64,000 nt of DNA from Candidatus Latescibacterota bacterium (GTDB taxonomy: Bacteria > Latescibacterota > UBA2968): the NCBI GenBank assembly GCA_965198115.1, contig OZ240241.1, positions 3,328,001 to 3,392,000 of the forward strand, written 5' to 3'. Both the position numbers and the translations under genes were made by a program. Below the pieces are notes generated by a model. It saw only the letters and a program-made list of their open reading frames with translations. It was not told where the DNA came from and made no database searches. The first letter of the stretch is position 1; every line of letters starts with the position of its first letter. Positions 30,973-47,882 of the stretch are shown here, in pieces.

Positions 30973-31020
30973 CCAGGGGCTGACGCCCCTGGCTATGAAC
31001 AGCCCGCCCCTTCGGGGCTG
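30973..31020. repeat. REP-like double palindrome
   Basis: CCAGGGGCTGACGCCCCTGG...GCCCCTTCGGGGC. Confidence 0.55.
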
Positions 31021-31067: not shown

Positions 31068-31928
31068 TCAGGCCAGGCTAAGCGCAGCGCGTTTCGGCAA
31101 CGCCGCCTGAAACGCCGCCACGCTCTCGAAATCATTCAAGGCGTGCCGCAAGTGCAGCGGCTCCGGCTGGCGATACACCGCGTGGATCGCGCGGCGAATC
31201 CGCTTCGTCTTCCGAATCGTCGCGCAGTGGTAGTTGAGCAGATTGAACATCACGGCCGATCCTGCCGGGGCGTGCACATCGACGCCTCCGATCCGTCGCG
31301 GGCGTTCACGCCCGAACGAATCCATCCATCGCGGTTTCTCCGGATGCACATAAGCCGTCTCGCCATCGGCGATCATCAAGGGGTTATCCCCCCAAGTGCT
31401 TTCTCCCCGCTTCTTGGGCCTATGGCGCTTCGTCTCCGCGCTTTCGGGAATGATGCTCGTGCAGTGGGTCGTCTCATCCACGTCGTCCAGGTAGTAGATC
31501 GTCTGGATCCCCGAAGCGAAGTAATCGTTCTGGTCAGCCCCCTCGCAGATGCCGCCGTATTCCCGGTGCCACAGGCGTGACAGCGCCAGCGGATCGTCAT
31601 CGATGTCCTCGGGCGCATCCGCGTCGCACGCTTCCCGTCGCATAAAGCTGAAGCTGCTGAATCGGACGCCCTTCCCCAGAATGGCTTCGATCAAGGGCCA
31701 CGTGTTGGGATGATAGATCACGCGGTCGAACACATCGATCCGGTGCAGGATAGACACTCCGTGCCCGATCGCGTCGTGTCCGGGCCGCTCACCCCATCTC
31801 CCAGTCCTTCGGATGGCAGTCTCGTCAGCATCCATCCCGTCGTTGATCGTCTTCACCTCTTCGGGTGAGAGAGCGCCCTCGATTACGACGTATCCGTTGT
31901 CAGCAAAATGTTTGAGTTGTTCGGTCAT
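31068..31928 (-). CDS. Phytanoyl-CoA dioxygenase (PhyH)-family Fe(II)/2OG enzyme, paralog 1
   Basis: FADNGYVVIEGALS, WHRE, YYLDDV, AGSAVMFN...HCA. Confidence 0.85.
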   Translation of the reverse strand: MTEQLKHFADNGYVVIEGALSPEEVKTINDGMDADETAIRRTGRWGERPGHDAIGHGVSILHRIDVFDRVIYHPNTWPLIEAILGKGVRFSSFSFMRREACDADAPEDIDDDPLALSRLWHREYGGICEGADQNDYFASGIQTIYYLDDVDETTHCTSIIPESAETKRHRPKKRGESTWGDNPLMIADGETAYVHPEKPRWMDSFGRERPRRIGGVDVHAPAGSAVMFNLLNYHCATIRKTKRIRRAIHAVYRQPEPLHLRHALNDFESVAAFQAALPKRAALSLA

Positions 31929-32083
31929 AGGATATCCTTTTGAAACCAGGAACACGAAGGCGCGAAGACGCGAAAAAGATCAGAATACCATCTCCTGACG
32001 CGGGAACATCTCCCAGCCTGGGACCCAGCCCAAACTCTGGAGAGTGACTTGCTTATCTCTGCGGTCTCTGCGTTGAAAGGATT

Positions 32084-32935
32084 TCAGATCTTCCCGATGC
32101 TGGCGCGTTTGGGCATTGCCGATTGAAAGTGCTCCACACTCTTCCACGGATCGACGATGGCGTGGCGGGAGTGGACGGGTTCGGGCTGACGATATCGGAC
32201 GTGAACCGTGCGGCGAATGTTTTCCGTCCTCCGAATCGTGCCGCAGTGCCAGTTCGCGTTGTTGAACACGACGGCCGTACCCGCCTTCCCGAGCACATCC
32301 ACCCCACCGATCCGGCGCGGATTCTCTCGCCCGAATGAATCCATCCACAGCGGCTTGTCCGGATCCACGTAGGACGTCTCGCGATCGTCGATCCGATACT
32401 CCCCTTCCTTCGTCTTCGGGAACTGTCGCTTTGTCTCCACACTCTCCGGGATGAGCGTCGTGCAGTGCGTCGTCTCATCCACATCGTCCAGGTAGTAGAT
32501 GATCTGGATCGCGGGCGTGAAGTAATCGTTCTTGTCCGCGCCCTCGACACAGCCTCGATCTTCGCGATGCCACTGACGTGACAGCACGGTGGGATCGCCA
32601 CCGTCCAGGTCGTCTGGCGGATCGGCCAGACACGGCTCGCGCCGCAGGAAGGACATTCCGGAAACCTGCACACCATCACCAATGATCGCGCGCACCAGCG
32701 GCACGGCGTTCGGATGATGGATCACGCAGTCCAGTGCTTCGGTTCGATGCAACAATTCCGGCGCCACGTTTCCTACCGCATCGTGGCCCGGACGTGGTTT
32801 CATCACCCACTTGTCGGGATGCGCCCTTGCATCGGCGTCGATCCCGTCGTTGATCTTGGCGATCTCTTCCGGAGATAGGGCGCCGTGGAGGACGGTGTAA
32901 CCGTTTTCAGCGAAATGTTTCAGGTGTTCGTCCAT
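32084..32935 (-). CDS. PhyH-family Fe(II)/2OG enzyme, paralog 2
   Basis: True start MDEHLKHFAENGY (the ORF-track N-terminus is IS-derived); WHRED, WHCG. Confidence 0.85.
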   Translation of the reverse strand: MDEHLKHFAENGYTVLHGALSPEEIAKINDGIDADARAHPDKWVMKPRPGHDAVGNVAPELLHRTEALDCVIHHPNAVPLVRAIIGDGVQVSGMSFLRREPCLADPPDDLDGGDPTVLSRQWHREDRGCVEGADKNDYFTPAIQIIYYLDDVDETTHCTTLIPESVETKRQFPKTKEGEYRIDDRETSYVDPDKPLWMDSFGRENPRRIGGVDVLGKAGTAVVFNNANWHCGTIRRTENIRRTVHVRYRQPEPVHSRHAIVDPWKSVEHFQSAMPKRASIGKI

Positions 32936-32979
32936 ACGATCGTCTGGTTGTCGTATCGGTTCACGCCAAATAAAAGGTT

Positions 32980-33006
32980 TAGGGACGGTTCGCGAACCGT
33001 CCCTAC
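32980..33006. repeat. GTAG-type REP palindrome
   Basis: TAGGGACGGTTCGCGAACCGTCCCTAC perfect palindrome next to the CTAG insertion hotspot. Confidence 0.65.
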
Positions 33007-33202
33007 TAGCCTGAATCATGCATGAATTTGAGTTTAGGTTGTTTTGGAGTGATGTGATCACGCACAGGATTTGTTCTCGGCTTCTTCGGATGTCCAAGGT
33101 CCCGTAAGCGGTCTCTACGAGTCGCAAGAGTCACGATTTTCGTCCGGAACAGGTGTTGTTTTGCGACGTGTACATAGCTGTCCCCGGTATAGATCGGCGT
33201 TG

Positions 33203-33940
33203 TTACTGCGTGTTCGTTTCGAGCCTGGTGATGATTGACACCAAGACGTTTTTGAGTGGATACGATGTTGGAAAATGGAATCGGATTCTTCGTGCGCTTT
33301 CAATGACTCTCGCGCCGATTTTGAGGAAACGGTTCTGTATCGTGTTGACCTGAGGTTTGGTCCACGCGGTGCCCTTGAGTCCCTGTGATCGGAGTGCGTG
33401 AAGCAAGGCGTATGCAGCACTGTGTAGAAAGAGTCGGAACTGGTTGGCTTCAAACTTGTGGCACGATGTTCGATCGGAGTGAAGGAATGTTTTGTGGTCC
33501 TTGATGAAGCCTTCCGTGCGTCCCCTTGCGCAGTAGATACGATCATAGATAAAGCCGTCTCGATTACTCTGTAAATTGGTCACGAGGTATCTTGGATTTG
33601 CTTCGCCGAGATCAGGACCGGAAAGAGGAAGCCGATCGCAGGCAGCCTTGACGCCCGGATCGTGGCGCAAATCATCACAATCGACGGCATCTTCATAGCC
33701 GCAAGCGATCTGAAAAACACGCTGCTTCACAAGATCCAAAAGCGTGTGATCGATATAGCTTGGGTGACGACGATCTCGCAAAGCATCTACCATTCTGGCG
33801 ATCAATCCCATCTGAGACTCAAGGGCGCGAAGCAACAGAACTCCACCGTCACTCCTGACGGCGCCACTGGCAAAATCAGCCTCAACTACCTTGCCCGAAA
33901 TGCTTGCGAATGGTAACCGGATCTGACTAGGTTCTATCAC
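33203..33940 (-). pseudogene. IS1380 transposase with in-frame internal deletion
   Basis: GPDLG is joined directly to EANPRY, removing the central DDE region present in copy 1. Confidence 0.85.
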
Positions 33941-34026
33941 GGTAGTTCCTTCCAAGTGTTGTTTTGATGTGTCAGCCCTAATGTAGGGAAAAACAAACAC
34001 TTGTACAAGGGGACTACCTTTTTTAT

Positions 34027-35446
34027 GGCTATATCCGGATCTCTCAACGAGCTGAAGTGGGTGAAGGTGCCGTGGTTCCTGGCATGGGGGCGCGGTTAGA
34101 GTGTGCGGAACCTCTTCGGAATCTGCTCAGGGATGTTTATGTCTCCGACGGTAAGGAAGATCATATCGTTGAATGCGTCGAGTGTGCGGAATCCGCTGGC
34201 TCGGTTCTTGACGATTTGGACGATTCGGTTGAGGCCTTCGGCGATGGCGTTGGTAAGACGCGTGTTCACGAATGCGAGGACGCCGAAGAAGTGCTGTCGC
34301 AGGGTCCTGACGAACTTTCGCAGGGGTTCACGTCGACTTCTGAGTGCGGACGTCGTCCAGCATTTCAGGAAGCGTTCGGCAGCCCAGGGCGCTTTGTATT
34401 CCCAGAACTGCTCGAACTCGTCCTTGAGTCTCCAGGCTCTATAGATTCGGTAGTTCGCCTTCTCCAGTGCTTTGAGTGTCCGAGTATCCCCTCTGGAGCG
34501 TGTCGCTGAGTGCCGGTAGAGGAGCCATCGGAGGCCCTTCATGGCTTTGCGCTCATCCGGGGCAGCTTCACGCCACTGGTCCTTACGGACCTCGTCAACG
34601 GCGGCATTGAGAGCCTTGACGATGTGAAAGCGATCGAGGACCAGCTTGGCATTCGGACAGTGTTCCTGGATGGCTCCGATGTAAGCTTCGCTCATGTCGC
34701 AGCAGGCCCACTCGATCTTGGATCTCCGGTAGGGACTGAGAGCCTCTGTGAAGAACCGATCGATCGTTTTACGCGCCCTGCCGCGGCCAACCCACACCAC
34801 GCAGGAGCGGTCCAGATCGTAAACGAGCGTGGCGTACCTGTGACGCTTGGCGTAGGAGATCTCGTCGATCCCGATGGTTTTGAGCCCTCGGATACGATGA
34901 CCTTCACGAAGCCGCGTGATGGATCGGTGAAGGAGATCCGACAGCGTCGAGGCAGAGATGCGCAGTAACTCGGACGCCGCCTTCTGCGTCAAGGTCTGGC
35001 AGTAGCGCAGCATGGCATACTCGAAGCGATACGTCACCCGAGAGAACCGCTCCGCCCACGGAATCTCCTCGACCACACGACCGTGGGTAGGACACCGAAT
35101 CTCCCGAGGATGGTAGAGAAGCCAGACCCTCCACCCGCACACCGGAATGTCACGCCACCGACGCGGATGGGGCATTGTGCGGACGATTTTACCTCGACGG
35201 CCGCACTCCGGACAACAACAACCATTCTTATGGGGCTTTACGGCGATGACGAAGCAGCTTCTCCCCTCAAACCACCAGCTGACAACACGGAACCCCTTGA
35301 ATCTCAGCAGTTTCGATAGTAATCTGCTCCCGGTCATAGGTCGCACCCCCTTCGCTTTGATTGTCCTACACACACAACCAAGCGTAGGGAACGATCTATG
35401 ACCTTGTCATTCTATAGTTTCACCGTTGAGAAACCCGGATAGAGCC
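34027..35446 (-). mobile_element. ISL3-family element (copy 2)
   Basis: Same IRs as copy 1; 8-bp TSD TTTTTTAT inside the IS1380 end. Confidence 0.95.
34096..35373 (-). CDS. ISL3-family transposase
   Basis: Near-identical to 20387-21664. Confidence 0.95.
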   Translation of the reverse strand: MCRTIKAKGVRPMTGSRLLSKLLRFKGFRVVSWWFEGRSCFVIAVKPHKNGCCCPECGRRGKIVRTMPHPRRWRDIPVCGWRVWLLYHPREIRCPTHGRVVEEIPWAERFSRVTYRFEYAMLRYCQTLTQKAASELLRISASTLSDLLHRSITRLREGHRIRGLKTIGIDEISYAKRHRYATLVYDLDRSCVVWVGRGRARKTIDRFFTEALSPYRRSKIEWACCDMSEAYIGAIQEHCPNAKLVLDRFHIVKALNAAVDEVRKDQWREAAPDERKAMKGLRWLLYRHSATRSRGDTRTLKALEKANYRIYRAWRLKDEFEQFWEYKAPWAAERFLKCWTTSALRSRREPLRKFVRTLRQHFFGVLAFVNTRLTNAIAEGLNRIVQIVKNRASGFRTLDAFNDMIFLTVGDINIPEQIPKRFRTL

Positions 35447-35470
35447 TTTTTTATGCATAATTCAGGCTAG

Positions 35471-37024
35471 GAGCCTGTCGGGTTACACCCGGAAGCTCGT
35501 TGAGATTAAGTCCAGCTGAGTCTGTCAGCGACCGGTTACCTTCGTTTTTTCCTTGAGCCGAGTTCCTCTTCGGGATCAGGTAGCCAATGAGAGTCGATAG
35601 AGTTTCAGAAGGTTGTGTGTGAGACAGATCAGGTTCCATTCTCTGATGACTTTGTGGATTCGGCGGAATGAGAATCGGGTGAAGTTCCGAACGGATTTGA
35701 TCTGTCCAAACACGGGTTCGATGATCTGTTTTCTTTTCCAGTAGGTGCAGCGACCTTTCTGTGTGAGAAGCTTTCTCGCCATTTTGTCTTTCGTCGTTGC
35801 GCCCTTGGGGATCCGTCCCCTGGGGCAGGTCGCGATGGGCGTTCCATGTTTCTGTTTTGTCGTCGCCACATAGAGGTCGACGCCATCTGATTGAACCTGA
35901 TCGACCTGACTTTGGTTGAAGTATCCGGTGTCGGCAGTGAGGTGCTTGGGTGTCGTGCCGCCCATATTCGCTCTGATCTGGTTGACCATAGGTGTCATCT
36001 GGTTCTTGTCATCAGCTTCTTGGGTGACGTCGGCAGCAACGACAATCTGGGCCTTGTCATCCACAGCAGCTTGGCAGTTGTAGGCTTGAAGGAATTGGCC
36101 CCCTGAGACCATGATCCGTGAGTCGGGATCGGTGAAGTTCAGTTGTTCCTTTCAGTCGGGCTCTTTCGATGGAGGCTTGGGCTTACGTCCACGACCGCCG
36201 CGGCGCTCCCGGGCCTTTACCTTCTCTTCATACGCTGCCTGCTTCTCAGGAAACTCAGCCTCCGCTTCGGCTTCGATCTCGGCTATTGCGTCGCGGATTA
36301 CTTTGAGTCGAGTCTCCCGGTGCTGCAACTCCTCGGGCAACTCGTCGCCGCGGTTGTCCTTTCCGTAGAGTTCGTCTTCGGCCGCGTCAGTGGCTTCGGC
36401 CTCGGTCAAGAGTCTGCGCACTTCGGCCTCGATCTCGGCTTCTTTCTTCTTCATCCGGCCGTAGCTCATCGCTTTGTGTTTTGAGGCATTTGCTTTGACT
36501 TTCGTGCCATCCAACGCCACGTGTCCCAGCTTCACCAGACCTGCCTTCACGCAGAGACACAGCACTTGCCTGAACAGACCTGAGAGGGCATCCAGATGCC
36601 GTTGACGAAAGGTCGATATCGTGTCGTGATCAGGATGCTGATCCAGGCTGAGCACACGGAAAGCAACCGAGTCATAGGTCGCACGCTCGATCTTGCGGGA
36701 ACTCCTGATGCCTTCACAGTAACCATACAGCAGTAGGCTCACCATCATCCGGGGATCATACGGTGGCTGGCCACCTTGAGACCCATCGTAGGTCTCGTAG
36801 ATCGCGGACAAATCAAGTTGTCCGACGATATCCAGAATGAAGTAGGTCGGATGACCCTTGGGAAGCCAACTCCGGAGATCCGGAGGCAGCAACATCAACT
36901 GAGCCGGATTGTAGACACGAAACCGAGTAGAAGTGCTCAACGGAAACCTCCAATTCAGAGTCGGAACCTTGATCGCACTTCTACAATACGAAATCTTCCT
37001 CCGGCTGGGTACTCCGACAGGCTC
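35471..37024 (-). mobile_element. IS1182-family element
   Basis: IRs GAGCCTGTCGG / CCGACAGGCTC with CTAG on both sides. Confidence 0.9.
35576..36940 (-). CDS. IS1182-family transposase, frameshift ~36150
   Basis: YDPRMM..LLLYGY..GIRSSRKIE, PDHDTI, LDGTKVKANAS, YNCQAAVD, ADTGY, IEPVFGQIK. Confidence 0.9.
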
Positions 37025-37037
37025 CTAGCATCGACAT

Positions 37038-37889
37038 TTAAATTCTCTCGATACTTGCGCGTTTCGGAAGTGCGGCCTGGAACTCCGCCACACTCTTGAA
37101 CGGGTCCTTCAACGCGTGCGTGGAGTGAACGGGCTCCGCCTGACGATATCGGACGTGAACCGCCCGCCGGATCCGCTCCGTCTTCCGGATCGTCGCGCAG
37201 TGCCAGCTTGCGTTGTTGAACAGAAGACCGGATCCCGCTTTCGCGTGTACGTCGACCCGACCGATCCGGCGCGGGAACTCGCGACCGAACGCGTCCGGCC
37301 ACAGCGGCTTGTCAGGATCCACATAGCTCGTGCGCGCATCGTCGATTCGCAGAACCCCTTCGGTCGTTTTGGGCAGCGTTCGTTTCGTCTCGGCGCTCTC
37401 CGGAATCACGCTCGTGCAGTGCGTCGTCTCGTCCACGTCATCCAGATAGTAGATAATCTGAATCGACGGCGCGAAGTACAAGTTCCTGTCGGCGCCCTCT
37501 ACGGTGCCGCTGTCCTCCCGATGCCACTGTCGCGACAGGGCGAGCGGATCGCCCCCGTCAATATCCTCCGGCGGGTCGGCCAGACACGGTTCACGACGCA
37601 TAAAGGTCAACCCGGAGCACAGACAGCCCTCGCCCAGGATCGCCTTTACAAGCGGGATCGCCGACGGATGATGGATCACACCATCCAACGCTTGAGTCCG
37701 ATGCATCAGCCCGGGGGCGTCGTTACTCACCGCATCGAAGCCCGGACGAGGCCTCATCACCCACTCCTCCGGATGTGTGGCCCTGTCCGAGTCGATCCCG
37801 TCGTTCACCCGTGCGATTTCCTCGGGCGACAACGCCTCGTGCAGGACGACATAGCCGTTTTCCTTGAAATGATCGAGATATTCGTCCAT
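37038..37889 (-). CDS. PhyH-family Fe(II)/2OG enzyme, paralog 3
   Basis: FKENGYVVL, WHRED, WHCA; highly similar to paralog 2. Confidence 0.85.
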   Translation of the reverse strand: MDEYLDHFKENGYVVLHEALSPEEIARVNDGIDSDRATHPEEWVMRPRPGFDAVSNDAPGLMHRTQALDGVIHHPSAIPLVKAILGEGCLCSGLTFMRREPCLADPPEDIDGGDPLALSRQWHREDSGTVEGADRNLYFAPSIQIIYYLDDVDETTHCTSVIPESAETKRTLPKTTEGVLRIDDARTSYVDPDKPLWPDAFGREFPRRIGRVDVHAKAGSGLLFNNASWHCATIRKTERIRRAVHVRYRQAEPVHSTHALKDPFKSVAEFQAALPKRASIERI

Positions 37890-39032: not shown

Positions 39033-39757
39033 GGCTGAAGCCCGACGCTGGAAACACAAAGCCGGCTAAAGCCGGCTATTCCAACCCCGGAAATCGGGAG
39101 AGCTCGAACCCTGTCCGCACCAGCGATTCGCTCGTCTACCTACGTGGCTACGACTACTACAACATCAACTTCTGGCAGAAGCTCAGACGATTCCAATTCG
39201 GAATCGTCGACGACCCCTTCTGAGTACAGCAAGCGTTTCCTTCCACGGATTTATTTTTACCAGGGATTCGTCCCACTCGAACATTGCGTAGCGGCCCAAA
39301 ATAGACCCGGCCAAGAAGCGAACCGGGGTGACAATCGTTGTTCGTTGGTGATGCGCGAAGCGAGAACTCCCAGTAAATCGACCTGCAGATCCTCCTCCTC
39401 CCTTAGCCGCTATCCTCGATCCCGATTCACCCACCGAACCCAACCTCCGTGTTCTCAGTCGTATGTTTTTCGTCTTTTTTTTGAACCGCGCTCCATCGGC
39501 CGGTGTCCTGACAGGTGAACGCCCAGAAAACGCGCGTGTAACCACCTCTCAGGAAGGAGCGTCCAATGTAACCCACGACGCCGGTATCAAGTAGCGATGG
39601 GGTTTTTTGGTGACGTGACAAAAACGTGTAGGCTTCTTGAGTACGTCGCACTTCGACGGAGTTCATCCTGAGCGCAGTCGAAGGGCTCAGTGTGACGTAT
39701 CCATCCTCGGTGTAATCTGTGTGTTCTGTGGTTCCACCCCGTCTTTCAAGGACATCG

Positions 39758-40342
39758 ATGACCGACGAAGACCTCCTCACCGCCATCGCAAAGCAAGATG
39801 CTGATGCCTTCGGGGAGTTCTTCAACCGCTTCGAGCCTCAAGTGATCCGTCACCTGACGCGTATCGTCAGAGATCCGGCAACCGCCGACGATCTGACTCA
39901 AGACGTCTTTTTCCGGGTCTGGGCGCGCGCTGGGCAGTGGTCGGGGCGAGGCAGCGCGCGGAGTTGGCTGCTCACGATCGCCACAAATCTGGCCCTCAAC
40001 CACTTACGCACCGTTAAACGCCGCCGCGAGCAGCCTCTCGACCCTGGACCCGATCCTTACGCCGAAGGCGACGGGACCCACGCCCCCAGCTGGATGATCG
40101 ACGAAGCCGCCGTCGGCGCGGATGAGCAATACGAACAGACCGAGCGACGGCAGTTGCTCAACGGCCTCGTCGACGAGCTGCCCGAAGACAAGCGCGAGGT
40201 CTTACGCCTCGTCTACGACGCCGAAATGGATGTAAGGGATGTCGCCGACCACCTCGGCATCCCAGAAGGCACCGTAAAATCCCGAATGCACCACGCGCGA
40301 CGACGACTGGCCGATCGATGGCGCAACATCGAAAAACCCTGA
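39758..40342 (+). CDS. ECF-type RNA polymerase sigma-70 factor
   Basis: Region 2 ADDLTQDVFFRVW...SWLLTIATNLALNHLR; region 4 LPEDKREVL...VADHLGIPEGTVKSRMHHAR; AAGGA SD. Confidence 0.93.
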   Translation: MTDEDLLTAIAKQDADAFGEFFNRFEPQVIRHLTRIVRDPATADDLTQDVFFRVWARAGQWSGRGSARSWLLTIATNLALNHLRTVKRRREQPLDPGPDPYAEGDGTHAPSWMIDEAAVGADEQYEQTERRQLLNGLVDELPEDKREVLRLVYDAEMDVRDVADHLGIPEGTVKSRMHHARRRLADRWRNIEKP

Positions 40343-40458
40343 ACCACCCTTCGACTACGCTCAGGACAAGCTCCGACACCAAGACACGAAGAAAACCGGA
40401 AGGAAAGGCATGAGCCCCCACTCAGCTTGCGGACATAACCCCCACCTTCTGGGTGAAT

Positions 40459-40511
40459 CAGCCCACTTCAGTGGGCTTCGCTAAAGTTGCGTGGGACTTC
40501 AGTCCCACGCG
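40459..40511. repeat. REP-like double palindrome between the sigma and polymerase genes
   Basis: AGCCCACTTCAGTGGGCT...GCGTGGGACTTCAGTCCCACGC; related units at ~9745-9795 and ~39030-39078. Confidence 0.6.
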
Positions 40512-40575
40512 GCTTGGCCGATTACCGACACTTCGACTCGCGCTCAGTGTGACGGTATGTCGGCCTTCCTGAACT

Positions 40576-43500
40576 ATGAACACTCTCAATGAGGTGCGAA
40601 TGACAATCACTCCTGCAACACCCTGGCACAACACCTCCTACCAGACCTTCATCTCGAGCACGCTGCCCGACCTGTTGGCCGATCGTGTCCCGCTCGATGG
40701 CTACAGCGTCAACCGGGTCGACGACTACAACGTCAACGTCGAACTGTCGCTCAGGACGAAGGGCGGCTCGATCGATCTGTCGTTCGCTGACGTGCCGGCC
40801 CCGGATGAACACGGCCTGTTCTTTGTGGACGGACAACAGGAGAAAAATGGCGGCTACCGCGTTGTCGTTCCGTATCCCGACGGGTTCGACCTCACAAAGG
40901 CGAACATCCTGTGCGTCGGCGAACAGTTGGCCGAATTCGTGGAGGCACGACTGGGGGATGCGCCGAACGATCTCGACTGGGATCAGAAGCTGGCGGAAGC
41001 CTGGCTGCCGGTCACCGGCTGGCTGGACACGTTCCTTCGGACCCAGCCCACGTCCCAATTTATCCAGAGCACGAACTGGCTGGACCGCACAACGCATCTT
41101 CGTCGCATCACGCTCGTCCCGATCGCCTTCGCCGAGGGTCCGTCGGAGAAGACGCACATCATACCCTCACTCCCCACGAGATCGCACTACCTGATGTCGC
41201 CCGAAGACGCGGCGGCGGGCTCGAAGCGTGGGTTGACCTGTCCCATCATCCAGCCCGAAGGCCCGAATATGGGTTGGATCTTCGAAGTCGCCCGGGGCGC
41301 GGAGATCAGGGACGGACGGCTCGTCCGCATCGAAGGGGCAGATCCCGCGGACGCGTCCCTCAACGTCGGCTGGAGCGGCTCGATGATTCCCTTCATCGAG
41401 CACACCGACTCCGCCCGCTTGCTAATGGGCGCGAATATGATGCGTCAGTGGATTGCTCCGAGGAACACGGCTGGTCTCCCGTCCGTCCAAACTGCGCAGA
41501 CCTATCCCGAAGATCTCGTCGACGCGCTCTCGAATCCACCCGGCCCGACACCCGAACCTGCGCTCGTCCAGACGGGAACGGAGCCGGATGACGCCGACTA
41601 CTGGGCGGGCTATAACCTGCTGACTGCCTTCACGATGTGGGACGGTGACACGTTCGAGGACGGCGTCGTCTTGTCCGAGTCCGCGGCGGCAAGGATGGCC
41701 TTCCCAGCCGACGTCGATCTCGGTGATAAGTTGAGCACGCGTCACGGCTTCAAGGGCGTCGTGTCCCGTATTCTACCCGACTCTGAAATGCCCGCGCTTC
41801 CCGACGGTACCGCGGTCGACACCATCATTTCGCCGACCAGTCTGATCTCGCGAGTCAACTTTGGTCAGCTGCGAGAAGCTGTGATGGGCCGCATCGCTCA
41901 CGCCGAAGGCCAGCCTGCGGTCGTGCCCGCCTACGAGGCACTGTCAATCGAAGACTTGAAGAGCCGGTTGAAAGGGGTGGGGCTGCCCGAGGATGGAATG
42001 GACCAACTGACACTCGGCGGAGAGGCGCTCCCGCACAGATCGACGGTGGGCTACGTCTACTGGGGGCGCCTCACGCATCTGTCACGGCACAAGCTGCGCG
42101 GTACGGACCACCTACTGGGGCCCGTGCTCTTCGGTGAGCGGCAATACTCAACGCTGAAAGGTCTCAAAGCCTACGCCACGATCGGCGATCTGCTACGACG
42201 CGCAACGGAAGCAGGCAACACCGTCCCGACACTGGACAACGTCACGGCCAAACTCAACGAGGCCGGCATTGTCCTCGAGCGGAATGGAGAGGAAGTCACG
42301 TTCTCGACAAACGGCACGAAAGGCTATACCCTCGCCTCGCCGGTCCCTCACCCCTGGCATCCCGAGGTCGAACTGAGGGCCGTCAGCGAAGGCGAAGGCG
42401 ATCTCTACGACGACGTCGTCGCGGCGGACGAGCGGGTGCGTCGCCTCGACGACAACGCGCCCGCCCCGCTGAAGTCGGCGGCGATCGAGCGTCTTGCCGC
42501 GGCCGTCGGCGACTATCTGGACGCATCCCTCACACCGAGCGATCTAGAAATCGACGCGCGTGTGCCCGATAGCGGCCGTGCCGTCATCGTCCCCGGTGCC
42601 GAGCTCGCACTCGATCAGATCGGTGTCCCTCGCGAAATGGCGTGGACCCTGTTCGGTGAAGACGTCGCGTCGGAGCTAGGCGAGGACGCCGTCGAGAAGC
42701 GAACGAAGGCTGCTACGTCACGTCTGGAGGAAATCGCCAACTCCGCCCATCTCCTGATCCACAAGGGCGTCCACATCACAGCCACGTCTGTGCTCGCTGC
42801 GCGGCCCGTCCTCATCGACGATCCCGTTATCCGCATCCATCCGATGCACTGCGCGCTTCTGGATGCCGACTTCGACGGCGATCAGGTCGCCGTCACGCGG
42901 CTCAAGTCAGAAGACGCCGTTCGCGAATGTGTGGAACGACTTTCCATCGCCGGCCACCTGCGTCACACACCCGACGCGCTTCGAATCCTCATCGGACGGC
43001 CGCACGGAATCAACTGGGGCTTGACCCGGCTTGCCAGAACGGCTGACGGTCGGAAGAAGATGACAGACATAGCCGGCGAAGCGATCGGTGAGGATTACGG
43101 TGGTCGCCGGTCTTATCTCGCCCTGCTCGAGCGCATCTTCGAGCGGGAAGGCGACAACGACGAGGGCTTGGCTAGAACGTTCGCCATCTACGACGGCCTG
43201 ATGCGACTCGGGCTCCAGGCGTGCAAGGAATCGGGCGTCTCCATCAACCCGTTCCTCGGTGCCTCTCTCGATCTGCCCGCGCCACCGCAATCCGACGATC
43301 TCGAATTGATGCATATATACAAGGAAGAACTCATCGCCGCGCTCAATCAGCATTCGGATCCCGATGACGGCGATGTCGGCACCTTCAACAGCTTCCGGCT
43401 CACAGGAACACGCGGCAGCGATGGGCAATACGTCCTCTACTTCGGCGCCATCGGCCACGTCGAGGGCGTCAACGTTCGTCACGGCTACATCAAAGGCCTC

Positions 43501-43740
43501 GACGTCGACGAAACCGCCGCCCTCAGCGCGAGAACAAGAGCCGCCATCGCCAGCGCCAACCGACAGATGGCCTCCTTCGACGATCGCCCGACCCTTCCCG
43601 GCCGCTCCTACGGCGTCATCGCAAGAGCGCGCAGAAGCGATCGCCCTGGCGTCGTCTTCGCACGGGCAGCCGCCAGAGGTGAAGTCGATCCCTTGGAGGA
43701 TGTTGATGCGCGGATCTTGTGTGGCTTGCCGGTGACATAG
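40576..43740 (+). CDS. Miniature single-chain RNA-polymerase-like protein: fused RpoB-core and RpoC-core (two-barrel nucleotidyltransferase)
   Basis: Collinear beta motifs (SQFIQSTNWLDRTTHLRRI, PEGPNMG, RLLMGANMMRQ, FEDGVVLS, GDKLSTRHGFKGVVSRI, LPDGTAVD, SRVNFGQL, VGYVYWGRLTHL) followed by beta-prime motifs (LASPVPHPW, SGRAVIVPG..L.LDQIGVP, IHPMHCALLDADFDGDQVAV, GTRGS, AAARGEVDPL). Confidence 0.9.
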   Translation: MNTLNEVRMTITPATPWHNTSYQTFISSTLPDLLADRVPLDGYSVNRVDDYNVNVELSLRTKGGSIDLSFADVPAPDEHGLFFVDGQQEKNGGYRVVVPYPDGFDLTKANILCVGEQLAEFVEARLGDAPNDLDWDQKLAEAWLPVTGWLDTFLRTQPTSQFIQSTNWLDRTTHLRRITLVPIAFAEGPSEKTHIIPSLPTRSHYLMSPEDAAAGSKRGLTCPIIQPEGPNMGWIFEVARGAEIRDGRLVRIEGADPADASLNVGWSGSMIPFIEHTDSARLLMGANMMRQWIAPRNTAGLPSVQTAQTYPEDLVDALSNPPGPTPEPALVQTGTEPDDADYWAGYNLLTAFTMWDGDTFEDGVVLSESAAARMAFPADVDLGDKLSTRHGFKGVVSRILPDSEMPALPDGTAVDTIISPTSLISRVNFGQLREAVMGRIAHAEGQPAVVPAYEALSIEDLKSRLKGVGLPEDGMDQLTLGGEALPHRSTVGYVYWGRLTHLSRHKLRGTDHLLGPVLFGERQYSTLKGLKAYATIGDLLRRATEAGNTVPTLDNVTAKLNEAGIVLERNGEEVTFSTNGTKGYTLASPVPHPWHPEVELRAVSEGEGDLYDDVVAADERVRRLDDNAPAPLKSAAIERLAAAVGDYLDASLTPSDLEIDARVPDSGRAVIVPGAELALDQIGVPREMAWTLFGEDVASELGEDAVEKRTKAATSRLEEIANSAHLLIHKGVHITATSVLAARPVLIDDPVIRIHPMHCALLDADFDGDQVAVTRLKSEDAVRECVERLSIAGHLRHTPDALRILIGRPHGINWGLTRLARTADGRKKMTDIAGEAIGEDYGGRRSYLALLERIFEREGDNDEGLARTFAIYDGLMRLGLQACKESGVSINPFLGASLDLPAPPQSDDLELMHIYKEELIAALNQHSDPDDGDVGTFNSFRLTGTRGSDGQYVLYFGAIGHVEGVNVRHGYIKGLDVDETAALSARTRAAIASANRQMASFDDRPTLPGRSYGVIARARRSDRPGVVFARAAARGEVDPLEDVDARILCGLPVT

Positions 43741-43825
43741 TCATCTGACCGACATACACGTCAAAGCCGCGGGTTGGTCGAGAGGACCGATCCGCGGCTT
43801 TTATTATCAGAAAGAAGTCGCCTGC

Positions 43826-43999: not shown

Positions 44000-44518
44000 A
44001 CTAGATGCGCGATCTGGATCCCACACGTCGGTTCACCAAGCTGCTGGGGAAGACTACCCACTCGACGCCTCTTCGCCCGGTGCCCTCGGTGGTAGGTTTT
44101 CAGTGTATTCTGTGTGCTCTGTGGTTCCCTCTCTCACTGGGCAGGCTCACCCAAATCCCGCGGAGTCCTAGGCCAATGGAACTTCTCCTCCCCCGTCAGC
44201 AGCGCCCGATGCTCTTCGGATATGGTCTTCACGAAGTCGGGATCGGGATCGTACCGGTTCCACGCCTGGAACATCGTGGGCATATACCCACCCAGAATGA
44301 GAAGGCGTTCCCTGTTCGACCGGATGATGCCCGCCGAATGCATCAGGGATTCGTAGAAGAGTAGCGTCGAGCCCGCCGGAGCTTCGACCTGATGGATCAT
44401 AGAAGGATCTTCCATTGCCGCATCCACGATCGCATCACGTGAAACGTCGGTCCCCACCTTGTGCGTCCCTGCGATGACCGTCGTCCCGCCGTCATCCGGC
44501 CCTAGATCCGTCAGATTA

Positions 44519-45812
44519 GGGTTTGCCACGAAATAAGTGCTGCACTTTTCAAGGTAATGATCTTACGCTCGGAGTGTGGACGTCGAAACTCTCCGAACGA
44601 AGTATGAAGCCTTGGCTCCGGTGCTGACGGAACGCACGCGTCGTCTGTGGGCCGCCACGGAAGCCGAAGCGTTGGGTCACGGTGGGATCGCGATTGTGGC
44701 TCTGGCGACAGGAATGTCCAGAGAGCGGATCTTTCGTGGCATTCAGGAGTTGAGGTCGGACGAACCTTTGGACCCGGCTCGCATCCGGCGTCCAGGCGGC
44801 GGTCGTAAGCGGAAGGCCGACACGGACCCGACGCTGTGGCAGGACCTGAATGATCTGGTCGAGCCAACGACTGCGGGGTCGCCTGACGACAATCCTCTGA
44901 GATGGACATCGAAGAGCACTCGCAAACTGGCCGCCGAGTTGCAAGCGATGGGGCATTCGGTGAGCCCCAGGATCGTTGCCAATCTCCTGCACGAACACGA
45001 TTACACGCTGCAGGCGAATCGGAAGACAAGGGAGGGATCTGCACACCCGGATCGGGACGCTCAGTTCGTTTACCTCGATGATCGGATTAGCCAGCAGCAG
45101 CAGCAGGGCCTTCCCGTTATCTCGGTGGACACCAAGAAGAAAGAGTTGATCGGCGACTTCAAGAATCCTGGCCGAGAATGGCGACCCAAGGGAGACCCGG
45201 AGCGTGTGAAGGTACACGATTTCATAGTGCCTGCTCAGGGCAAGGCGATCCCTTATGGAGTGTATGATCTGAGCCGTGATGAAGGCTGGGTAAGTGTCGG
45301 TATCGATCACGACACGGCCAGCTTCGCCGTGAATGCGATCCGAAGTTGGTGGAAGAACATGGGACGGCCCGCCTACGGCACTTCGACGCATCTGCTAATC
45401 ACGGCGGACGCAGGCGGCAGCAACGGCGCCAAGACGCGGCTGTGGAAGTGGGAGCTGCAGCGCTTTGCGAATCGCACTGGCCTGACGATCACCGTATGCC
45501 ACTACCCTCCTGGCACTAGTAAGTGGAACAAGATCGAACATCGCCTGTTCTCCTTCATCGCTATGAACTGGCGAGGCAAGCCCCTGGTCAGCCTGGCTGC
45601 AACCGTGAATCTCATTGCCGGAACGACCACTCAAGCCGGTCTCCGAGTACGCTCCGAGATCGACAAGCGACCCTACCCTAACGGGGTCAAGGTGACCGAT
45701 GAACAGATGACCCAAATCGATCTCACTCCGCACGATTTCCACGGCGACTGGAACTACACGATCCGGCCAATGGCTCAACATTGAGATCGACCGTTTATTT
45801 ATTCGCGAACCC
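44519..45812 (+). mobile_element. ISAzo13-family element
   Basis: Ends GGGTTTGC / GCGAACCC; 3-bp TSD TTA. Confidence 0.9.
44576..45784 (+). CDS. ISAzo13-family transposase
   Basis: RIRRPGGGRK, ISVDTKKKELIG, ITADAGGSNG, PPGTSKWNKIEHRLFS. Confidence 0.95.
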   Translation: MDVETLRTKYEALAPVLTERTRRLWAATEAEALGHGGIAIVALATGMSRERIFRGIQELRSDEPLDPARIRRPGGGRKRKADTDPTLWQDLNDLVEPTTAGSPDDNPLRWTSKSTRKLAAELQAMGHSVSPRIVANLLHEHDYTLQANRKTREGSAHPDRDAQFVYLDDRISQQQQQGLPVISVDTKKKELIGDFKNPGREWRPKGDPERVKVHDFIVPAQGKAIPYGVYDLSRDEGWVSVGIDHDTASFAVNAIRSWWKNMGRPAYGTSTHLLITADAGGSNGAKTRLWKWELQRFANRTGLTITVCHYPPGTSKWNKIEHRLFSFIAMNWRGKPLVSLAATVNLIAGTTTQAGLRVRSEIDKRPYPNGVKVTDEQMTQIDLTPHDFHGDWNYTIRPMAQH

Positions 45813-46462
45813 TTAGTCAGCGCCTTGACAAACGAGAAGTGGTAGAGACCCCGTTCCATATGACTGTATGCCGGGTTGATTCCACGATGGAAGCCAAACC
45901 GCTCCCCACCATCGGCCACTGGCCGGCGTATGTGGGCATCCGATTGCTGGAGCCGGGCCGGGCCACCGATGATTTCCTCTGCCATCCCGACAATGAACGG
46001 GCTCGTCAGGTAATCGAAAAAACACTGTGCCAGGTGCGGCAGGTTATCGATCCGGAAGAACTCCTCCGTCGTACTCGTGTTGAAGCAGTTCGGCCCGGGC
46101 ATTTCTCCGTTCCGGCGAAACTGATCCTCTATCTCATACAGCGTCTCCTTCAGCACATCGATCTCGTCCTGCGACAACACCTGTTCGACAATGACGTACC
46201 CGTAGATCTCGATGTGCAATCGCTGAGCGGGCGTCAGCGCGGGAAACGACTTTGCTTTCGGTTCTGCGGTCATTGATTCCGATCCCTTGGTTCCGTGGAC
46301 GTCACAGTGATGCCCATATGATAGGCCGGGCAGCGGCCAAGCCATCGCTCCTCTCACTGCAGTTCCGTAGGAATTCACACTACGATGGTGGTGCGAATGC
46401 GTCGGCCACCGAGACGAGGGACTCAAGCCCACCGCTTGGCCGCAAAAGTCGGGTCGAAAAAT

Positions 46463-47882
46463 GGCTCTATCCGGGTTTCTCAACGGTGAAACTATAGAAT
46501 GACAAGGTCATAGATCGTTCCCTACGCTTGGTTGTGTGTGTAGGACAATCAAAGCGAAGGGGGTGCGACCTATGACCGGGAGCAGATTACTATCGAAACT
46601 GCTGAGATTCAAGGGGTTCCGTGTTGTCAGCTGGTGGTTTGAGGGGAGAAGCTGTTTCGTCATCGCCGTAAAGCCACATAAGAATGGTTGTTGTTGTCCG
46701 GAGTGCGGCCGTCGAGGTAAAATCGTCCGCACAATGCCCCATCCGCGTCGGTGGCGTGACATTCCGGTGTGCGGGTGGAGGGTCTGGCTTCTCTACCATC
46801 CTCGGGAGATTCGGTGTCCTACCCACGGTCGTGTGGTCGAGGAGATTCCGTGGGCGGAGCGGTTCTCTCGGGTGACGTATCGCTTCGAGTATGCCATGCT
46901 GCGCTACTGCCAGACCATGACGCAGAAGGCGGCGTCCGAGTTACTGCGCATCTCTGCCTCGACGCTGTCGGATCTCCGTCACCGATCCATCACGCGGCTT
47001 CGTGAAGGTCATCGTATCCGAGGGCTCAAAACCATCGGGATCGACGAGATCTCCTACGCCAAGCGTCACAGGTACGCCACGCTCGTTTACGATCTGGACC
47101 GCTCCTGCGTGGTGTGGGTTGGCCGCGGCAGGGCGCGTAAAACGATCGATCGGTTCTTCACAGAGGCTCTCAGTCCCTACCGGAGATCCAAGATCGAGTG
47201 GGCCTGCTGCGACATGAGCGAAGCTTACATCGGAGCCATCCAGGAACACTGTCCGAATGCCAAGCTGGTCCTCGATCGCTTTCACATCGTCAAGGCTCTC
47301 AATGCCGCCGTTGACGAGGTCCGTAAGGACCAGTGGCGTAAAGCTGCCCCGGATGAGCGCAAAGCCATGAAGGGCCTCCGATGGCTCCTCTACCGGCACT
47401 CAGCGACACGCTCCAGAGGGGATACTCGGACACTCAAAGCACTGGAGAAGGCGAACTACCGAATCTATAGAGCCTGGAGACTCAAGGACGAGTTCGAGCA
47501 GTTCTGGGAATACAAAGCGCCCTGGGCTGCCGAACGCTTCCTGAAATGCTGGACGACGTCCGCACTCAGAAGTCGACGTGAACCCCTGCGAAAGTTCGTC
47601 AGGACCCTGCGACAGCACTTCTTCGGCGTCCTCGCATTCGTGAACACGCGTCTTACCAACGCCATCGCCGAAGGCCTCAACCGAATCGTCCAAATCGTCA
47701 AGAACCGAGCCAGCGGATTCCGCACACTCGACGCATTCAACGATATGATCTTCCTTACCGTCGGAGACATAAACATCCCTGAGCAGATTCCGAAGAGGTT
47801 CCGCACACGCTAACCGCGCCCCCATGCCAGGAACCACGGCACCTTCACCCACTTCATCTCGTTGAGAGATCCGGATATAGCC
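46463..47882 (+). mobile_element. ISL3-family element (copy 3)
   Basis: Same IRs; 8-bp TSD CGAAAAAT. Confidence 0.95.
46536..47813 (+). CDS. ISL3-family transposase
   Basis: Near-identical to the other two copies. Confidence 0.95.
   Translation: MCRTIKAKGVRPMTGSRLLSKLLRFKGFRVVSWWFEGRSCFVIAVKPHKNGCCCPECGRRGKIVRTMPHPRRWRDIPVCGWRVWLLYHPREIRCPTHGRVVEEIPWAERFSRVTYRFEYAMLRYCQTMTQKAASELLRISASTLSDLRHRSITRLREGHRIRGLKTIGIDEISYAKRHRYATLVYDLDRSCVVWVGRGRARKTIDRFFTEALSPYRRSKIEWACCDMSEAYIGAIQEHCPNAKLVLDRFHIVKALNAAVDEVRKDQWRKAAPDERKAMKGLRWLLYRHSATRSRGDTRTLKALEKANYRIYRAWRLKDEFEQFWEYKAPWAAERFLKCWTTSALRSRREPLRKFVRTLRQHFFGVLAFVNTRLTNAIAEGLNRIVQIVKNRASGFRTLDAFNDMIFLTVGDINIPEQIPKRFRTR

Follow-up and report, generated by a model that had tools for sequence, protein, structure and literature searches.

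A two-gene unit, in which the gene of an extracytoplasmic function (ECF) sigma factor is followed by that of a miniature, single-chain derivative of the beta and beta-prime subunits of RNA polymerase (RNAP), was analysed in a 64,000-nucleotide stretch (hereafter the window) of the genome of a Candidatus Latescibacterota bacterium (assembly GCA_965198115.1, contig OZ240241.1, positions 3,328,001 to 3,392,000 of the forward strand). The unit is real, conserved and apparently undescribed; no description of a sigma-miniature family was found in the literature searched, and the ECF reclassification papers with their supplements and the Iyer-Aravind review, which lay outside this search, could mention the group. 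As judged by sequence comparison, the polymerase (hereafter the miniature) is under purifying selection, and it probably binds the sigma factor encoded in front of it. The role tentatively preferred here, at rather less than even probability, is that of a catalytically competent but likely slow and non-processive core that binds the sigma in the place of an anti-sigma factor, with the host RNAP making the mRNA.

Anatomy and active site of the miniature polymerase

The open reading frame (ORF) of the miniature spans positions 40576-43740 and its likely start is the ATG at 40600 behind the sequence GAGGTG, which gives a single-chain beta::beta-prime protein of 1046 amino acids (40600-43740; this and all other stranded features are on the forward strand), the length of the database copy P0003. 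Residue numbers are those of P0001, which begins eight codons before the likely start, at 40576. The assignment draws on Pfam, which detects RNA_pol_Rpb2_6 and RNA_pol_Rpb1_2, on profile alignments and on an AlphaFold2 model (pLDDT 88.4, pTM 0.87). In Pfam and PDB sequence searches the first half corresponds to RNAP beta, the best matches being bacterial, and the second half to beta-prime, the whole amounting to ~40% of the joint length of RpoB and RpoC. The NCBIfam scores fall far short of the curated cut-offs for full-length subunits, with 136 versus 801 bits for TIGR02013 (rpoB) and 59 versus 963 bits for TIGR02386 (rpoC). The homologues are named 'hypothetical protein' in their sources, and the two nearest Atlas clusters are called 'hypothetical' and 'DNA-directed RNA polymerase family protein'.

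The segments of the miniature were mapped by profile alignments of P0001 to the host beta and beta-prime subunits; the domain names and E. coli residue numbers are those we take to apply, positioned via these alignments. Conservation was assessed in 66 sequences, namely the window protein and 65 representatives of 940-1150 amino acids among the 150 listed. According to the structure alignment and the segment map, the beta half (40600-42282) retains the N-terminal core, the rifampicin/fork region, the hybrid-binding region, barrel B and the C-terminus, and its model superposes on Rpb2/RpoB chains with a VIA-align Z of ~28 over ~500 residues at ~3 A. Residues 16-100 correspond to beta ~50-180 and residues 101-158 to beta 411-478, and this jump of the matches from ~180 to 411 indicates that the lobe is gone. 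Residues 159-245 and 256-372 represent the fork, hybrid-binding and first barrel segments, after which a 16-residue link stands for host beta 795-1046, the flap, and residues 380-573 resume at beta 1047-1278. At this deletion junction (41674-41754), SES and GDK lie 16 residues apart instead of ~250, as they do in 60 of the 66 sequences, and are followed by the catalytic lysines K385 and K393. Of two presumed determinants of assembly on the alpha dimer, PDxEMP is partly retained and the DGRTG segment of beta is mostly lost, a DGxxG pattern occurring in 11/66; the host genome has one rpoA.

The beta-prime half (42283-43740; model pLDDT 92.6) spans E. coli beta-prime 16-1358 with large internal deletions, and 470 of its 485 spanned residues align with that chain at a root-mean-square deviation of 3.4 A (Z 28.6); the C-terminal assignment is thereby confirmed, and no space remains for an additional domain. 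Residues 584-595, corresponding to beta-prime 101-112, are followed by the clamp coiled coil (residues 609-672; 42400-42528), the predicted docking site for sigma region 2, which has lost the rudder, forms two helices in both AlphaFold2 models and is retained although flanking sequence is deleted on both sides. The first-pass annotation of this DNA had placed the clamp helices at 42400-42522; the peptide it quoted is the exact translation of these positions and was aligned by hhalign to host beta-prime 263-352, the clamp coiled coil, with a probability of 95% and an E-value of 2.8e-8. At the tip, R620, R623, P629 and L632 are found in 45, 41, 62 and 59 of the 66 sequences, respectively. Residues 660-810 constitute barrel A with the DFDGD motif, and residues 820-1001 correspond to beta-prime 558-772, ending within the bridge helix. 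This helix is shortened (43495-43614; residues 931-1001 for host beta-prime 688-772) and leads through a 12-residue loop straight into the C-terminal clamp segment, within which residues 1026-1050 show a weak sequence match to beta-prime 1296-1320 (E 0.05). Nothing in the miniature corresponds to host beta-prime 773-1295, and the start of the bridge helix (G974) and the C-terminal segment (R1017) lie only 41-59 residues apart in 66/66 sequences, so that the trigger loop and jaw are absent. The regions lost thus comprise the flap, lobe, zinc finger, lid, rudder, jaw and trigger loop, and since nearly every residue of the miniature aligns to the canonical subunits, their place is not taken by any new domain. 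The host genome yielded no separate piece with a trigger loop or flap, and PF04998 had one match per genome in the five genomes checked, with no second polymerase piece.

The catalytic DFDGD motif (42868-42882), whose D765, D767 and D769 are kept in 64, 64 and 63 of the 66 sequences, occurs in 161 of 177 full-length homologues; a few family members have lost catalytic aspartates. Of the beta catalytic lysines, K385 is found in 60/66 (arginine in four) and K393 in 62/66, and further active-site and hybrid-contacting residues are similarly retained (R426 65, H501 60, D362 61, R290 65, Q291 64, R668 58 and R946 61 of 66), the hybrid-binding and nucleoside triphosphate (NTP)-binding residues being the most conserved of the miniature. 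Two double-psi barrels with DxDGD are present, barrel B has its basic residues and the aspartate of the second metal (D362) is kept, and the miniature is accordingly a member of the two-barrel superfamily; by the features tested it stands outside the canonical RpoB/RpoC, YonO-like and yeast virus-like element (VLE) polymerases. The window copy deviates from the family in having a lysine where 55/66 have the NRAP arginine and an aspartate where 37 have the asparagine of NADFDGD. The ratio of nonsynonymous to synonymous substitution rates (dN/dS) is 0.13-0.24 in 13 pairwise comparisons of miniatures; the window copy and its 83% identical relative give 0.095. Far more divergent members of 891-973 amino acids were also seen (P0233, P0214, P0197), among which P0233 lacks several beta catalytic residues and keeps DFDGD, and the representatives include longer beta::beta-prime fusions of 1600-2800 amino acids with partial deletions (P0245, P0252, P0256, P0260, P0261, P0263, P0268, P0272).

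Several known systems share features with the unit. Natural full-length beta::beta-prime fusions (NCBIfam PRK09603, PRK14844), which replace the separate rpoB and rpoC genes, are likewise joined in rpoBC order, whereas the miniature has 1046 residues for models of ~2850 positions and reaches 126 bits where the cut-off is 5372. Operons of ECF sigma and anti-sigma factors have an autoregulated promoter, the sigma gene first and a coupled second gene; here, the second gene encodes a polymerase derivative and not a membrane or zinc-binding anti-sigma. With canonical bacterial RpoB and RpoC in an ECF holoenzyme, such as the sigmaH-RNAP of M. tuberculosis in the available text of PMC6411747, the unit has in common the same folds in the same order, the clamp coil, both barrels, the catalytic residues and an ECF-type -35/-10 promoter, whereas the miniature is one chain of ~40% of the joint length, lacks the regions named above, is accessory to an intact rpoBC and travels with one sigma. 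YonO of the B. subtilis prophage SPbeta, according to the accessible part of PMC5467207, is a single-chain two-barrel enzyme of ~100 kDa that is active without detectable trigger-loop homology and shares few residues with multisubunit RNAP; the miniature, in contrast, is a recognisable deletion derivative over nearly its whole chain, and is chromosomal, sigma-linked and without a relative in viral contigs. The nearest anatomical analogue is VLE ORF6: in the sections available of PMC2919709 and PMC6211774, the K2ORF6p/K2ORF7p polymerase of yeast VLEs has a beta::beta-prime-like fusion of ~980 amino acids with no trigger, rudder or lid in the large chain and with reduced rim helices. It differs in its eukaryotic cytoplasmic setting and poxvirus-like origin, in having no sigma and in a second small subunit that carries C-terminal beta-prime regions, whereas in the miniature the C-terminal beta-prime segment is part of the same chain and no second subunit was found. 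The clamp coiled coil, kept in the miniature, is likely lost in the VLE enzyme (PMC6211774, same sections). PolD, in the portion of PMC6355029 available, lacks even the bridge helix.

The sigma factor, its linkage and its promoter

The sigma gene (39758-40342) encodes a protein of 194 amino acids with regions 2 and 4 (Pfam Sigma70_r2, E 9e-18; Sigma70_r4_2, E 8e-14) and no sigma3. The presence of these two regions only, the size of ~200 residues and a TIGR02937 score of 106 bits (cut-off 42.9) place it among the ECF factors, in a clade specific to the unit, and no named ECF subfamily cut-off was reached among its best 25 matches. It retains D45, Q48 and E49 of region 2.2, and its linker carries the motif P-x-W-x-x-D (weighted conservation in 116 pairs: P110 0.87, W112 0.88, D115 0.90), the linker being described in the available text of PMC6411747 as the least conserved part of ECF factors. 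In 11 pairwise comparisons the sigmas show dN/dS of 0.04-0.27. In a divergent subgroup (L176, L181, L183, L185, L195, L196, L202) the linker tryptophan is mostly missing and the promoters have an altered, CCGTGTC-like -10; this subgroup provides a natural test of sigma-promoter covariation.

The arrangement reported by the first-pass annotation, with the sigma directly upstream of and co-oriented with the polymerase, agrees with the Pfam matches and ORF coordinates, and its adjacency across homologues, on which that annotation had staked its proposal, holds widely. Examination of the best 80 of 113 confirmed relatives from a genome scan and the best 80 of 485 from a metagenome scan placed a cognate sigma of one ECF clade directly upstream at 75/80 genome loci (two without upstream sequence, three without a sigma) and 71/80 metagenome loci (five without upstream sequence, four without a sigma). 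The 80 genome-scan relatives are titled Latescibacterota, Poribacteria, Gemmatimonadota, Chloroflexota, Armatimonadota, Planctomycetota and Hydrogenedentota, that is, at least seven phyla, and rpoC is present in all five hosts checked from other phyla, one copy being frameshifted in the assembly. Among 168 genomes of the phylum, the sigma occurs in 63, the miniature in 66 and both in 62; the single sigma-only genome has its sigma at a contig end, and the four miniature-only genomes comprise one intact copy and three fragments. In one genus the unit is present in 21/21 genomes, in several of which a gene is inserted between the two members; the inserts are an ABC exporter of ~590 amino acids (L108, L110, L111, L119) or an unknown gene of 380-400 amino acids (L109, L112). 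A BlaI-like repressor lies 3' of the miniature in five of the loci with inserted genes. No neighbour family, whether anti-sigma-like, alpha or other, is shared across phyla next to the pair, nor is there a common downstream gene, in keeping with the earlier statement that the sigma lacks an anti-sigma gene. A same-genus locus, L243 (G080:C44), keeps the promoter and a leader like that of the window with only the last ~80 codons of the miniature, implying that the unit was deleted there and is dispensable.

The sigma and miniature trees are broadly congruent (Mantel r 0.87 over 55 pairs, in which kin are not independent), as gene linkage alone would predict whether or not the proteins bind. Covariation between the two proteins was at noise level in 116 pairs with an effective number of 61 (top z 7.1 versus 6.2-6.6 with shuffled pairing), and at this depth no pair of clamp and region-2 positions was among the top 25. 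A search of longer proteins for a natural sigma-polymerase fusion gave one unrelated ECF of 433 amino acids. Two proteins with an in-frame sigma part and the rear of a miniature (P0215, P0230) are single-member clusters without the beta catalytic lysines, and were set aside as probable deletion products or chimeras. A phage origin was rejected on finding no relatives in viral contigs and, among 33 phage-record matches, none that covers 80% of the query.

Motif conservation predicts a bipartite promoter in front of the unit (39482-39507), with a -35 element TGAAC (39482-39486), a 14-nt spacer and a -10 element CGGTGTC (39501-39507); the sigma likely recognises it, which would make the promoter autoregulatory and of ECF type. 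The motif was derived from 55 upstream regions (the window and 54 of the 64 complete pairs), all of which contain TGAAC-N14-CGGTGTC in a loose form and 50 in the strict form, compared with 19 of 5000 random windows, and one -35/-10 spacing is kept in 53/55. It is found in 50/61 regions of an independent metagenome set unused in the derivation, most of the others showing variants by eye. In most relatives the motif lies ~60 nt before codon 3 of the sigma; in the window it is farther away, with a dispersed repeat between.

Scans for the pattern in the host genome, 10 other genomes and 31 genomes of the family yielded no conserved target beyond the unit's own operon. With the trained matrix the window promoter is the top site of the host genome (28.3 versus 20.8 bits, the site having been in the training set), and a core-only matrix ranks it second, behind an antisense site within a gene. 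In nine of the 10 other genomes the exact pattern stands at the operon, the tenth having lost the sigma, and the remaining exact matches are mostly inside or antisense to genes; they also include a site repeated within an insertion sequence and, in one genome only, a site that precedes an ORF. Among the 31 family genomes every match in carriers is at the operon except the antisense in-gene site of the host. An intergenic candidate before a GNAT-like gene of the host was rejected, the site being found at 0/28 testable homologue loci.

Possible roles of the miniature polymerase

For the preferred role, the sigma with the host core would fire the promoter, its region 4 held by the host flap, and the sigma and miniature would be made together. 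The miniature would then capture sigma region 2 through its clamp helices and take the linker into its cleft, so damping the positive loop; the resulting complex may be able to bind or melt the same promoter, making at most short RNAs. The intact NTP/Mg/hybrid site could, in the weakest step of this scheme, let nucleotide levels or RNA polymerase-targeting agents modulate the brake. Binding is likely in view of the clamp coil kept between deletions, the conserved R620, R623, P629 and L632, the sigma residues D45, Q48 and E49 and the linker motif. In the ECF factors described in the available text of PMC6411747, the clamp coiled coil is the docking surface of sigma2 and the flap-tip helix that of sigma4, and the linker occupies the cleft. 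Since sigma4 wraps around the flap-tip helix and depends on a rigid spacer (PMC6411747, same text), a promoter that requires sigma4 at a fixed distance, combined with a miniature devoid of a flap, favours the host core as the transcriber. The lack of trigger loop, lobe, jaw and rudder makes the miniature a poor candidate for the predicted transcript of ~4 kb; when folding of the trigger helices is blocked, E. coli RNAP becomes slower by a factor of at least 10^4 (PMC4227799, part available). Moreover, the miniature occupies the gene position normally held by an anti-sigma, no anti-sigma gene being conserved, and 62 of the 63 sigma-bearing genomes of the phylum also have the miniature, the exception lying at a contig end. 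If this reading is true, an RNAP core has been put to a new use, as the partner that regulates a sigma factor.

Several observations weigh against it. The near-invariance of the catalytic residues (D765/767/769 64/64/63, K393 62, R426 65, H501 60 and R946 61 of 66) is more than a pure decoy needs, and the near absence of genomes with the sigma but no miniature would arise just as readily if the sigma had no use by itself. The equivalents of E. coli R275, E295 and A302, clamp positions that we take to be important for sigma70 binding, are changed in the miniature, the first two to alanine in 50 and 45 of 66, so that sigma binding may be weak or lacking. Miniatures without an adjacent sigma exist (L014, L049, L073, L164, L166, L167, L192), and that of L014, with a dN/dS of 0.16, is still under selection. 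The genome G179 (L049, L206) contains, besides a complete promoter-sigma-miniature unit, another miniature that lacks a sigma and is directly preceded by a promoter, which makes the L049 copy resemble a plain target gene. The core-motif scan of the host genome gave 31 sites above 16 bits versus 11 in the reversed control, by which weak extra targets are possible. Finally, YonO elongates efficiently without detectable trigger-loop homology (PMC5467207, accessible part).

The first of these points and the last keep close another reading, which is possible though on the doubtful side, namely that the miniature and sigma form a self-sufficient, alpha-independent and processive holoenzyme orthogonal to the host RNAP, acting for instance when the latter is inhibited and transcribing the cassette and the occasional inserted genes. 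Apart from the conserved catalytic and hybrid-binding residues, it accords with the kept clamp helices, in which the changed R275 and E295 equivalents could confer orthogonality, with the PxWxxD motif in what is otherwise the least conserved ECF part (PMC6411747, available text), and with YonO and yeast VLE ORF6 as reduced single-chain precedents. The rarity of DGxxG (11/66), presumably an alpha determinant, and the lack of an alpha gene travelling with the unit are also consistent with it, as are the congruent trees, which are however expected of linked genes anyway. On the other hand, such a holoenzyme would have to manage without a flap to hold sigma4 and without trigger loop, lobe, jaw or rudder, for none of which a substitute domain is present, and without a regulon beyond the unit it would be a loop with little output. 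The dedicated orthogonal holoenzyme put forward by the first-pass annotation finds partial support in the linkage to one ECF clade and the retention of the clamp coil, and is weakened by the lost domains and the lack of another target. Were this doubtful reading true, bacteria of at least seven phyla would possess, in addition to their normal RNAP, a chromosomal sigma-dependent polymerase descended from their own beta and beta-prime that transcribes from its own promoter, the smallest of its kind known to us and a ready-made orthogonal expression system or, if processive, a compact orthogonal transcription tool. We know of no precedent for either of these two leading readings.

It is unlikely, though conceivable, that the sigma only switches the gene on via the host core and that the miniature acts independently of the sigma, as an effector at RNA ends or RNA:DNA hybrids that carries out short extension, priming, pyrophosphorolysis or cleavage, with clamp helices that are structural or bind NusG. 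Such a role would suit the strong conservation of the hybrid-binding and NTP-binding residues, the sigma-less copies that keep a promoter (L049, L164) or remain under selection (L014), and the ABC exporters inserted as cargo in the same placement (L108, L110, L111, L119). It would, however, leave a self-activating sigma without a visible brake, and it sits less well with the conservation of the linker motif of the sigma and of R620, R623, P629 and L632 at the exposed clamp tip, and with the frequent translational coupling of the two genes. A decayed rpoBC duplicate or an assembly artefact with the sigma adjacent by chance, suggested by the truncation or loss of some copies (L073, L125 and the same-genus remnant), is very improbable given 65 full-length representatives at 50% identity with the same deletions, dN/dS of 0.095-0.24 and recurrence of the pair in at least seven phyla. 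A role as a rifamycin sponge was rejected, since the equivalent of S531, in what we take to be the usual numbering, is not conserved.

The miniature represents a natural deletion experiment under selection across phyla, and two genes with one 26-bp promoter make it possible to test what the minimal core for sigma-dependent melting and initiation is and whether a two-barrel centre can work without trigger loop, flap and alpha.

Locus and host genome

The host genome is a single contig of 8.43 Mb with an intact rpoBC operon and a single rpoA ~1.4 Mb from the pair, in line with the earlier remark that rpoA is not nearby. The sigma gene precedes the miniature gene on the same strand, and the 257 nt between them (40343-40599, no strand assigned) contain palindromic repeats, parts of which have ~35 BLAST matches across the host genome; the first-pass annotation had recognised them as resembling repetitive extragenic palindromic (REP) repeats. 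In many relatives an ATGA overlap of the two genes replaces this spacer (at least 21 of the 64 pairs listed, many from one genus). The leader (39508-39757) is unusually long and contains a dispersed repeat at ~39650-39690 with ~30 genome matches and an inverted match to 40347-40375. At 39552-39572 it also carries a strong ribosome-binding-like sequence followed by an immediate start-stop (ATG TAA), a similar sequence being present in L243. A terminator-like hairpin with 17-bp arms (88% complementary) and a T run lies 3' of the miniature stop codon (43763-43806); it was absent from the output of the terminator scan, the T run having been read from the sequence.

A second sigma-miniature pair was observed in the host genome (L001:10406-14187; G000:C1:1427408-1431190), among transposase remnants and with a promoter of 13-nt spacer. 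Its miniature is 42% and its sigma 53% identical to the window copies, and the sigma lies directly upstream, overlapping the miniature start.

PADLOC gave no match for the unit, and the Rfam search none within it; an Acido-Lenti-1 RNA match exceeding the gathering score was seen at 30973-31019 of the window. The 30-52 kb part of the window contains PhyH dioxygenases, a DHDPS-like gene, transporters and several transposases around the pair. The PhyH-like dioxygenase paralogues, at 31068-37889 and 44134-46483, are broken up by many insertion sequences, and the transposases include two near-identical copies of 425 amino acids (34096-35373 and 46536-47813) and one of the ISAzo13 type (44576-45784).

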